From NCBI RefSeq assembly GCF_003334385.1, contig NZ_QOWN01000011.1: a stretch of 64,000 bases of DNA, one strand, 5' to 3'. Positions 7,390 to 40,185 of the stretch are shown piece by piece (the first letter of the stretch is position 1; each line of letters starts with the position of its first letter). This DNA comes from Escherichia coli (GTDB lineage: Bacteria > Pseudomonadota > Gammaproteobacteria > Enterobacterales > Enterobacteriaceae). Position numbers and translations under genes: made by a program. Under the pieces are notes generated by a model. It made no database searches. It was not told where the DNA came from and was given only the letters and a program-made list of their open reading frames with translations.

Positions 7390-10542
<3,153 letters not shown>

Positions 10543-10560
10543 TACAACGTGTAATCACTA

Positions 10561-10583
10561 AGGCCGCGTAAGCGGCCTTTTTT
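10561..10583 (+). terminator. intrinsic terminator of acrAB
   Basis: aggccgc-gtaa-gcggcct hairpin then T5, 19 nt after the acrB stop. Confidence 0.75.
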
Positions 10584-11087
10584 ATGCATAACCTACGAAC
10601 ATTAAGGAGTAATTGAACCACCAACTCAGGATCTCATACGAAAACCAGTATTAACCACGGATAAAATTCATAAAAAATACTGATTGTTAGTTAATTTATA
10701 TTAAGTAGCGCTAATAGATTTAATAATCCATAATCATTTAGAGGCTATTCTTAATTATTTGCGGTAATTCTTTATTCATTCCTCGGTTATTACGTCATAT
10801 TCAGAGCAATCCTGGTATTAGTGTCACCAATTTCATCTGGCGATAATCCTGAAATGTTATGAATAGTTCGAGCAAACTGCTTTTACCTGCTGCGGGTTAG
10901 TGCTAGTATGAAAAAGTGAGTCCTGTCCCGCTTCCTTCCTAATTGTAATTTTTCGTAATAATGCGATGAAAACCTGCAAAGAGTGGCTTATAGTTAAGCT
11001 AACAAACGAGAGGGCAAGTCCAGGTCAGTAAGTTTTTTCCATCCCGAAAGGTGTCCGTTAGTTCAACCGCTAAGAAGGGGACGCGTT

Positions 11088-11462
11088 ATGGATGAATACT
11101 CACCCAAAAGACATGATATCGCACAGCTTAAGTTTCTCTGTGAAACCCTGTATCATGACTGCCTTGCAAACCTTGAAGAAAGCAATCATGGCTGGGTAAA
11201 CGACCCAACCTCGGCGATCAACCTCCAGTTGAATGAACTGATTGAGCATATTGCGACCTTCGCACTTAATTACAAAATTAAGTATAATGAAGACAATAAG
11301 CTCATTGAGCAGATCGACGAATATCTGGATGACACCTTTATGTTGTTCAGTAGTTATGGTATTAATATGCAGGATCTTCAGAAATGGCGGAAGTCAGGTA
11401 ATCGACTATTCCGTTGTTTTGTCAATGCGACGAAAGAGAATCCTGCGAGTTTATCTTGTTAG
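11088..11462 (+). CDS. tomB: Hha toxicity modulator TomB (YbaJ)
   Basis: 124-aa [39 protein letters not shown]...; matches E. coli TomB; preceded by AAGAAGGGG ribosome-binding site. Confidence 0.94.
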
Positions 11463-11487
11463 AATTATTACAACCATAGGTAGAAGT

Positions 11488-11706
11488 ATGTCCGAAAAAC
11501 CTTTAACGAAAACCGATTATTTAATGCGTTTACGTCGTTGCCAGACAATTGACACGCTGGAGCGTGTTATCGAGAAAAATAAATACGAATTATCAGATAA
11601 TGAACTGGCGGTATTTTACTCAGCCGCAGATCACCGCCTCGCCGAATTGACCATGAATAAACTGTACGACAAGATCCCTTCCTCAGTATGGAAATTTATT
11701 CGCTAA
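11488..11706 (+). CDS. hha: haemolysin expression modulator Hha (H-NS co-regulator)
   Basis: 72 aa from ATG at 11488: [72 protein letters not shown]; this is the C-terminal part of the 154-aa track ORF. Confidence 0.94.
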
Positions 11707-11877
11707 TAAATAATTCGCTTTCGGAGCTATAACCGGCTGTTTATTAAGAATTTTATACTTTTTCGCCATGAAGACATACCCTATGTGATCTTTATCACAC
11801 AGATGTAATGGGAACGTTCTCTTCACTGACTTTTCGTCTTACTGTGTTGCCGCATTTTCAGCAACCGGAGGTCAGTA

Positions 11878-12429
11878 ATGAGCACAGAAAAAGAAAAGAT
11901 GATTGCTGGTGAGTTGTATCGCTCGGCAGATGAGACGTTATCTCGCGATCGCCTGCGCGCTCGTCAGCTTATTCACCGATACAATCATTCCCTGGCGGAA
12001 GAGCACACATTACGCCAGCAAATTCTCGCTGATCTATTCGGTCAGGTGACAGAGGCTTATATTGAGCCAACGTTTCGCTGTGACTATGGCTATAACATTT
12101 TTCTCGGTAATAATTTTTTCGCCAACTTCGATTGCGTGATGCTTGATGTCTGCCCTATTCGCATCGGTGATAACTGTATGTTGGCACCAGGCGTTCATAT
12201 CTACACGGCAACACATCCCATCGACCCTGTAGCACGTAATAGCGGTGCTGAACTGGGGAAACCCGTCACCATCGGTAATAACGTCTGGATTGGCGGACGC
12301 GCGGTCATTAACCCTGGTGTGACCATTGGTGATAACGTCGTGGTAGCCTCAGGTGCAGTTGTCACAAAAGATGTCCCGGACAACGTTGTCGTGGGCGGTA
12401 ATCCAGCCAGAATAATTAAAAAATTGTAA
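11878..12429 (+). CDS. maa: maltose O-acetyltransferase
   Basis: 183-aa ORF with hexapeptide-repeat left-handed beta-helix signature; matches E. coli Maa. Confidence 0.93.
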
Positions 12430-39726: not shown

Positions 39727-40185
39727 TCTGTAAATATTATTTAGCTGTAGTAATCACTCGCCGTAATTATTACGGCTAAATAAACATCAGTATCGCTTAT
39801 TAATATTTGTTCTTTTGTGCGGCTTAGCGTTTGGAAATTATTGGCGCCATTTATAAATTCTATTTTTCTTACACGATTCAGCTAATGAGTCTTTATTTTC
39901 TCATCACCCAGTTGTCACTCTAATGATAATTATTTGTTAAATAATTGTTTTATTTCACATTGATTATACCAATTGCCCGCCCAGACTCCTTCAGCACTCC
40001 CCTTTTGTTATAACGCCCTTTTGCAACAGCTTCTTAAAATCAACCTGATATGTTTTGCAACATATGTGACCTGGCAGCCAAATCCAAGTAACAGGAATTT
40101 AATCATGTTTACAGTAATGTAACCTTCCCGTAAAATGCCCACACACTTTAAACGCCACCAGATCCCGTGGAATTGAGGTCGTTAA

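Follow-up and report, generated by a model that had tools for sequence, protein, structure and literature searches.

The closest described counterpart of the region analysed here is the catalogued promoter of the tomB (ybaJ)-hha operon of Escherichia coli K-12. A single tomB transcription start site (TSS) is listed at position 480019 on the minus strand of NC_000913.2, with 53 reads and an 87-nt 5′UTR, and zero further TSS are listed between it and acrA (Kim et al. 2012; PMC3415461, supplementary file 2). The orthologous promoter of Klebsiella pneumoniae ybaJ is represented in the same dataset by a TSS with 151 reads and a 97-nt UTR. Shimada et al. (2014; PMC3946193) observed an RpoD-holoenzyme SELEX peak in the tomB-acrB spacer and assigned the hexamers ATGAAA and TATAGT, separated by 17 bp, to tomB-hha; this hexamer assignment was made in silico, the experimental part being the binding of the holoenzyme to the spacer only. 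The locus analysed here is identical to that of K-12, with matching hexamers, 17-bp spacing, TSS and 87-nt UTR, and nothing material is different.

A second counterpart is the orthologous ymoB-ymoA operon of Yersinia, compared here by its published geometry. In Y. pseudotuberculosis, EMSA shows a shift of the ymoBA promoter fragment by phosphorylated CpxR (CpxR~P); the CpxR motif precedes TSS2 by 56 bp, and promoter activity increases with constitutive CpxR. Both operons share a CpxR-type box that starts about 56 bp ahead of the TSS and a UTR of about 90-106 nt (106 nt in Yersinia), whereas an upstream start site, TSS1 (188 nt from the ATG), is found in Yersinia and none is listed for E. coli or Klebsiella by Kim et al. 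(2012; PMC3415461). The upstream region likewise resembles the H-NS-bound regions preceding stress and virulence promoters of the Enterobacteriaceae, which are long, low in GC content (0.28 here) and have reported H-NS sites.

The stretch of E. coli DNA analysed, referred to as the window, is 64 kb in length, and the gene order in the part considered is acrB, tomB, hha and maa. A window position w corresponds to position 491796 - w on the minus strand of MG1655 (NC_000913.3). The genes and the distal elements of the spacer between acrB and tomB are as follows:

7393-10542, + strand: acrB
10560-10585, + strand: acrB intrinsic terminator, a GC-rich stem of 8 bp, AAGGCCGC GTAA GCGGCCTT, with a T-run after it (terminator scan, match at 10560-10579; sequence)
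10581-10780, no strand: AT-rich distal spacer, GC 0.28, poorly conserved in sequence with its low GC content kept across genera; published H-NS sites lie in the spacer
11088-11462, + strand: tomB, Hha toxicity modulator, 124 aa (ORF listing, curated MG1655 record)
11488-11706, + strand: hha, 72 aa (sequence, curated MG1655 record)

Between the end of acrB (10542) and the start of tomB (11088) lie 545 bp, which the initial annotation had described as unusually long and AT-rich. This description is borne out, as the spacer is one of the longest gaps between large ORFs in the window, the GC content at 10581-10780 is the minimum 200-nt value of the whole 64 kb (window mean: 0.515), and the AT-rich run quoted in that annotation is found in the spacer sequence. 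The spacer is present in 5424/5426 complete E. coli genomes, with a coverage of at least 80% in 5409 of the 5426, and is 100% identical to that of several other E. coli genomes. PGAP annotation of the spacer in the complete E. coli genomes is empty except for occasional IS1 insertions, while the curated MG1655 record, which includes small proteins and sRNAs, has zero features in it. An Rfam scan of positions 10400-11900 (E ≤ 1) likewise gave no match and hence no known riboswitch, leader or sRNA.

In the 76 species compared, the spacer has a median length of 509 bp and a median GC content of 0.375, versus 0.55 in acrB, while its sequence drifts. In all fetched loci with enough flank, acrB is located upstream of tomB and the spacer measures 435-559 bp. 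A long, low-GC and sequence-drifting spacer is consistent with a compositional rather than sequence-specific role, which may be H-NS nucleation or DNA curvature. The initial annotation had expected DNA of this kind to be bound by H-NS, and this is supported by the published data, in which the tomB-acrB spacer is flagged 'HNS' for H-NS sites determined by in vitro genomic SELEX (Shimada et al. 2014; PMC3946193). A literature search for in vivo ChIP results for H-NS on the spacer found none. We infer that H-NS represses the tomB-hha promoter, and a feedback loop on tomB-hha via Hha may also operate.

A scan for promoter consensus sequences identified one promoter-like site only on the + strand of the spacer, and the core promoter and start site can be mapped as follows:

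10966-10971, + strand: -35 hexamer ATGAAA, GTGAAA or AGGAAA in other genera (promoter scan, alignment, Shimada 2014)
10989-10994, + strand: -10 hexamer TATAGT, separated from the -35 hexamer by a 17-bp spacer and invariant in 78/78 sequences (scan, alignment, Shimada 2014)
11001, + strand: mapped tomB-hha TSS, an A, corresponding to NC_000913.2 480019, minus strand (Kim et al. 2012)
11001-11087, + strand: tomB 5′UTR, 87 nt, with no significant global structure

Nine of the twelve hexamer positions match the sigma-70 consensus. The published 50-mer upstream of the tomB TSS, which ends in GATGAAAACCTGCAAAGAGTGGCTTATAGTTAAGCTA, places the start site at 11001, 7 nt past TATAGT. The stretch 10966-11001 thus combines all the elements expected of a sigma-70 promoter, namely the two hexamers, a spacer of 16-18 bp and a start site 5-9 nt past the -10 hexamer. 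A sigma-S ChIP-seq peak annotated as tomB (479920-480115 in v2 coordinates) corresponds to approximately 10905-11100 of the window, and an RpoS SELEX peak is also located within the spacer. The tomB-hha promoter is of the sigma-70 type and is also recognised by sigma-S. In Salmonella, only the tomB-nearest fragment, p922, is active among the fragments tested within 1000 bp upstream, p201 and p622 being inactive, and deletion of p922 results in a phenotype as in the hha and tomB deletion mutants.

With the TSS at 11001, only 87 of the 545 bp (11001-11087) constitute a transcribed leader. The 'long AT-rich leader' of the initial annotation is as such retained in part, in that the AT-rich spacer exists, while the leader is short.

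Two further candidates for regulatory elements were considered and set aside. A -10-like element, TAGTAT, at 10903-10908 aligns in several genera and could be the analogue of Yersinia TSS1; there is, however, no E. coli or Klebsiella TSS at this position and the distal Salmonella fragments are inactive, and an upstream tomB promoter in E. coli was not adopted, although one may act under special conditions. A PdhR SELEX peak attributed to tomB was considered irrelevant to the spacer because it is located within acrB and its motif is poor (8/14).

To determine the conservation of the region, one orthologous tomB locus was taken from each of 80 species, distributed over Escherichia, Salmonella, Citrobacter, Enterobacter, Klebsiella, Raoultella, Kosakonia, Kluyvera and other genera. 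The 330 nt upstream of tomB were aligned for 78 Enterobacteriaceae sequences, comprising 77 fetched loci of other species and the window. Two stretches stand out in these 78 sequences: the block TAATTGTAATTTTTCGTAATAA (10940-10962), with 81-100% identity per position, and TTATAGTTA (10988-10996), with a per-position identity of at least 95%. The GGGGA of the Shine-Dalgarno sequence is furthermore invariant in the alignment. Conversely, positions between and beyond these elements are poorly kept, identity falling to about 6-30% at 10976-10979 and 10998-10999 and to 9-19% at 11005-11007. The pattern of upstream conservation, as read from the alignment, is characteristic of a promoter rather than a gene.

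These poorly kept positions lie in the interior of a short open reading frame which the initial annotation had put forward as a candidate leader peptide:

10966-11031, + strand: 21-codon open frame spanning the core promoter (-35 to +31), judged non-coding

The frame exists as originally described, from the ATG at 10966 to the TAA ending at 11031, encodes MKTCKEWLIVKLTNERASPGQ, and ends 56 nt upstream of tomB. No Shine-Dalgarno-like sequence was found in TTTTTCGTAATAATGCG upstream of its ATG, which also agrees with the initial annotation. A 21-codon open frame is unremarkable in AT-rich DNA, with 51 ORFs of at least 20 aa being listed within 3 kb around it. As a separate observation, a 40-aa ORF is located on the minus strand at 10857-10979; conservation in this region tracks the promoter anatomy and not any frame.

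The opening ATG of the -35 hexamer doubles as the 'start codon' of the frame. The mapped TSS follows this ATG (10966) at a distance of 35 nt (PMC3415461), and the start codon is therefore outside the main tomB mRNA. A genuine leader peptide or uORF regulating tomB-hha would accordingly have to be carried on a long leader starting upstream of 10966, but the scan gave no second + strand promoter-like site in the spacer from which such a transcript might start. The classical leader peptides encoded by thrL, hisL, pheL and mgtL have only their size (about 14-30 codons) and a position upstream of an operon in common with the candidate. Real leader ORFs are located downstream of the TSS, have a ribosome-binding site and translation initiation site (TIS) peaks, are associated with alternative terminator and antiterminator hairpins, and are conserved, whereas the candidate is without all of these. 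In particular, a terminator scan found no terminator-like hairpin or attenuator between 11031 and 11088.

Published ribosome profiling data bear on the frame directly. The exact ORF is catalogued in the 'Cryptic Bacterial Microproteome' preprint (PMC11188072, Table S4) at 480767-480830 on the minus strand, where it is classed as 'Intergenic' and falls outside the selected 'Entero67K' set. In the reanalysis of retapamulin and Onc112 data reported there, the TIScounts and TISfraction cells are empty for this ORF, while thrL and hisL have TIS counts. Its peptide appears once in the text of the preprint and is therefore outside the retapamulin/Onc112-supported set. Conventional ribosome-protected fragment (RPF) reads do cover the ORF (107 reads; coverage: 100%), the RPF-only sheet being permissive, with dozens of overlapping intergenic frames per 80 kb. 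The small-ORF supplement of Stringer et al. was checked by coordinates, gene names and peptide, and the ORF is absent from it, as it is from the curated K-12 annotation.

The frame was further evaluated by translating each of the 78 sequences from the position aligned with its start. All 21 codons are kept in only 3/78, all of them Escherichia (the window, E. albertii and one other Escherichia species), while the frame stops after 3-6 codons in 64 of the 78, as in MKSFLE* of Salmonella and Citrobacter and MKS* of Enterobacter. In three other Escherichia species the change of codon 7 from TGG to TAG cuts the frame. The start position itself reads GTG in 27 and AGG in 3 of the sequences instead of ATG. 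Where the frame is intact in both, E. albertii and E. coli differ at 6/21 residues, and the published substitution rates (dN: 0.115; dS: 0.087; dN/dS: 1.33; PMC11188072) show no sign of a conserved frame. Within E. coli, the frame is intact in 7/7 divergent genomes, with the sole substitution being non-synonymous (C4Y). This must be read against the polymorphism of the spacer as a whole, where two variable sites occur in the 148 bp at 10940-11087 versus 28 in the 397 bp of the distal part (10543-10939), making the former about 5-fold less polymorphic. As the low polymorphism extends over the whole of 10940-11087, preservation of the frame in E. coli reflects constraint on the promoter and UTR and not selection on a peptide.

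A leader peptide can thus claim an open frame beginning with ATG, its integrity in the seven divergent E. coli genomes, E. albertii and one further Escherichia species, and RPF reads across its entire length. Set against the upstream position of the ATG, the missing initiation signals, the truncations in related species and the dN/dS value, these leave the proposal with almost no credence. Each of the tests envisaged in the initial annotation, namely initiation-site mapping, determination of the 5′ end and frame conservation, gave a result contrary to translation from 10966, and the candidate leader peptide is largely refuted.

The full RPF coverage does indicate that some RNA crosses the promoter, which is probably read-through from acrB. 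The ORF may on this basis be viewed as an Escherichia-restricted 'proto-gene', showing trace translation from such read-through and having no selected function. The 107 reads at a coverage fraction of 1, the limitation of the frame to three Escherichia species (E. coli, E. albertii and a third), and the enrichment for Ribo-seq signal reported for intergenic ORFs downstream of and co-directional with genes (PMC11188072) would all fit. However, the absence of TIS signal and of a Shine-Dalgarno sequence and the dN/dS above unity apply here equally, the RPF-only sheet is permissive, and ribosome-profiling libraries also hold non-ribosomal fragments, which together make a proto-gene highly unlikely, if slightly less so than a regulatory leader peptide. 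The 21-codon frame is a chance ORF across the core promoter and not a gene.

Immediately upstream of the -35 hexamer, the conserved block contains a further element:

10945-10959, + strand: CpxR-type direct repeat GTAAT-N5-GTAAT (GTAATtttttcGTAAT), -56 to -42 from the TSS

The CpxR consensus is reportedly a tandem box, GTAAA-N5-GTAAA, and GTAATTTTTCGTAAT (10945-10959) fits it at 8/10 positions. Per-position identity within the box is 83-100% in the 78 sequences. GTAAW-N5-GTAAW has a single match in the 64-kb window, and at least one match in 22% of shuffles; the case for the box is therefore made by its conservation, position and the literature and not by the match count. RegulonDB lists both tomB and hha as CpxR targets, and tomB belongs to the CpxR iModulon, while a ChIP-exo study did not, under its conditions, include tomB among the direct CpxR targets. 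Inhibitors of LolCDE activate envelope-stress responses. Expression of tomB is induced 5.9-11.2-fold by a LolCDE inhibitor. On this evidence, GTAAT-N5-GTAAT is the likely CpxR site of E. coli.

The conserved sequence at 10940-11000 could also be interpreted as an AT-rich enhancer of the UP-element type serving a constitutive promoter, or as an operator for TomB autoregulation, neither being CpxR-dependent. The block is A+T-rich and its position (-61 to -39) is that of UP elements, and the promoter was classed as 'constitutive' by Shimada et al. (2014; PMC3946193), the holoenzyme alone binding to it. Furthermore, binding of TomB to the p922 fragment is reported in Salmonella, and ChIP-exo did not identify tomB as a direct CpxR target. 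The exact GTAAT-N5-GTAAT is, however, kept beyond mere AT-richness and into the Erwiniaceae, RegulonDB and the iModulon assign CpxR, and CpxR~P shifts the Yersinia fragment, whose motif is equally distant from the TSS. The palindromes proposed for TomB binding in Salmonella are, moreover, located between the -10 hexamer and the start site and not in this block. We consider a CpxR-independent role unlikely, while noting that UP-element, TomB operator and CpxR functions are not mutually exclusive.

The putative CpxR site persists in Erwinia, Pantoea and Apirhabdus, as does a -10 element located about 100 nt upstream of tomB. In the first two genera, tomB does not adjoin acrB and the spacer is only 143-146 bp in length. 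As the box and -10 hexamer are kept in Erwiniaceae that lack the acrB neighbour, the core promoter is older than the long spacer.

Downstream of the TSS, two elements can be recognised in the 5′UTR:

11039-11045, + strand: conserved CCATCCC
11074-11081, + strand: strong Shine-Dalgarno sequence of tomB, GAAGGGGA

The global fold of the UTR was not different from that of shuffles (z = -0.15). RNAalifold on 25 UTRs yielded only a 7-pair interaction, which joins the invariant CCAUCCC (11039-11045) to the Shine-Dalgarno sequence and start codon and lacks covariation. We therefore do not propose a structured RNA element; pairing of CCAUCCC with the Shine-Dalgarno sequence and start codon as a translational switch is a smaller possibility.

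In the distal spacer, a further motif is recognisable in other genera and is represented in the window by a remnant only:

10801-10814, + strand: degenerate RcsAB-box-like remnant, TCAGAGCAATCCTG, 5 mismatches

The RcsAB box consensus is TaAGaatatTCcta (PMC4325325), and no RcsAB box with three or fewer mismatches occurs anywhere in the 64-kb window. A similar motif, TAAGAATATTCCTG/A, is present with at most two mismatches in 53/76 species. In most of these it precedes tomB by 312-335 bp (about -225 relative to the TSS), and in one genus by 237 bp. A literature search for Rcs control of tomB found no link, its results being mostly 'RCSB PDB' noise. It is possible, if doubtful, that the distal spacer carries an unreported RcsAB/RcsB-box-like operator, held at a fixed distance from tomB in most Enterobacteriaceae genera and decayed in Escherichia, a suggestion derived from motif matches and their spacing.

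The 545-bp spacer is very probably a composite, non-coding regulatory region of tomB-hha in which the 21-codon frame arose by chance. From 5′ to 3′ it would comprise the acrB terminator, approximately 350 bp of H-NS-binding AT-rich DNA with distal operator-like motifs, the CpxR-type repeat, the promoter, the TSS and the 87-nt 5′UTR. Under envelope stress, CpxR~P bound just upstream of the -35 hexamer would raise tomB-hha transcription, which begins at 11001, while H-NS on the AT-rich upstream DNA would be expected to damp it. Published data provide the TSS, the in vitro SELEX evidence for binding of RNA polymerase and H-NS to the spacer, the assignment to the CpxR regulon and the sigma-S ChIP peak, while the promoter anatomy and conservation pattern were observed in this analysis.

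The region is the already-known regulatory region and promoter of tomB-hha and is ordinary, and its importance beyond housekeeping is little. What is added here is a family-wide conservation map and the overlap of the candidate ORF with the core promoter. The useful result is a coordinate-level map of the tomB-hha control region, covering the terminator, AT-rich DNA, CpxR-type box, promoter, TSS and UTR. It also illustrates a common trap, in that ATGAAA-like -35 hexamers in AT-rich promoters supply a 'start codon' and mimic leader peptides when only the sequence is read. The promoter architecture is ancient, being common to the Erwiniaceae, while only the acrB-tomB junction of the Enterobacteriaceae has the long AT-rich distal part. 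The RcsAB-like box represents one modest new lead. If it is functional, the Rcs phosphorelay would control tomB-hha, and via Hha also H-NS silencing, in Salmonella, Citrobacter, Klebsiella and Enterobacter, with E. coli having lost the Rcs input, and a second envelope-stress pathway would be tied to Hha/H-NS silencing.

Within the 87-nt 5′ untranslated region of tomB (11001-11087), the heptamer CCAUCCC at 11039-11045 is invariant. It is complementary to the GGGA of the Shine-Dalgarno sequence (11078-11081) together with the UGG overlapping the start codon (11089-11091), and this pairing, comprising seven base pairs with an energy of -3.8 kcal/mol and showing no covariation, is the sole consensus pairing predicted by RNAalifold. 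The heptamer could serve to sequester the Shine-Dalgarno sequence, or could alternatively represent a binding site for a protein or sRNA.

Further conserved elements can be observed in the distal, AT-rich acrB-side part of the acrB-tomB spacer. A motif resembling the RcsAB box, TAAGAATATTCCTG/A, occupies a constant place in this region and is present with at most two mismatches in 53/76 species; most of the tomB loci retrieved from other species (L006-L081) carry it 312-335 bp upstream of the gene. The Enterobacter and Lelliottia form is TTAGGAATATTCCTAA, while the Escherichia counterpart (TCAGAGCAATCCTG; 10801-10814) is degenerate, with five mismatches. No connection between Rcs and tomB was found in the published literature. 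Another conserved patch, at 10851-10870, approximates CTAAC-N3/4-ATGAAT-N3-AAGG in most genera and reads GAAATGTTATGAATAGTTCG in E. coli; it matched no nameable promoter hexamer pair or factor site.

In a few E. coli genomes, an IS1 element is inserted within the acrB-tomB spacer (10543-11087), including NZ_CP017220.1 and NZ_CP128912.1 (the spacer matches H1 and H20, respectively). The match in the former is split into two pieces over 1322 bp, with an IS1B transposase in between. A second trough of very low GC content (0.285), comparable to this spacer, occurs elsewhere in the window at 39775-39974, within a 459-bp gap (39727-40185).

In the Erwiniaceae loci of Erwinia amylovora (L089) and Pantoea sp. 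(L090), acrB does not neighbour tomB-hha. An ORF of 117 amino acids without a Pfam match is instead located upstream, its stop codon falling at or within the CpxR-like box (a GTAAT-N5-GTAAT direct repeat), while two genes found downstream belong to PF01035 (DNA_binding_1) and the YscW family, respectively.

Several database proteins of ~185-205 amino acids bear the YbaJ/TomB and HHA Pfam domains together, and other TomB calls are N-terminally extended (135-177 amino acids). These two-domain and extended entries, which include P0005, P0008, P0010 and P0026 among others, probably arose as artefacts, either of a frameshift or of gene calling, over the 25 nt that separate tomB from hha. Two further transcription start sites, preceding the hha ATG by 115 and 16 nt, have been reported for this gene (Kim et al. 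2012); they map to ~11373, inside tomB, and ~11472, just past it. A promoter scan furthermore identified a strong promoter-like sequence inside tomB (TTCGCA-18-TATAAT; 11259-11288; 10/12 matches). Given the two additional start sites, transcription of hha is therefore possible independently of tomB.
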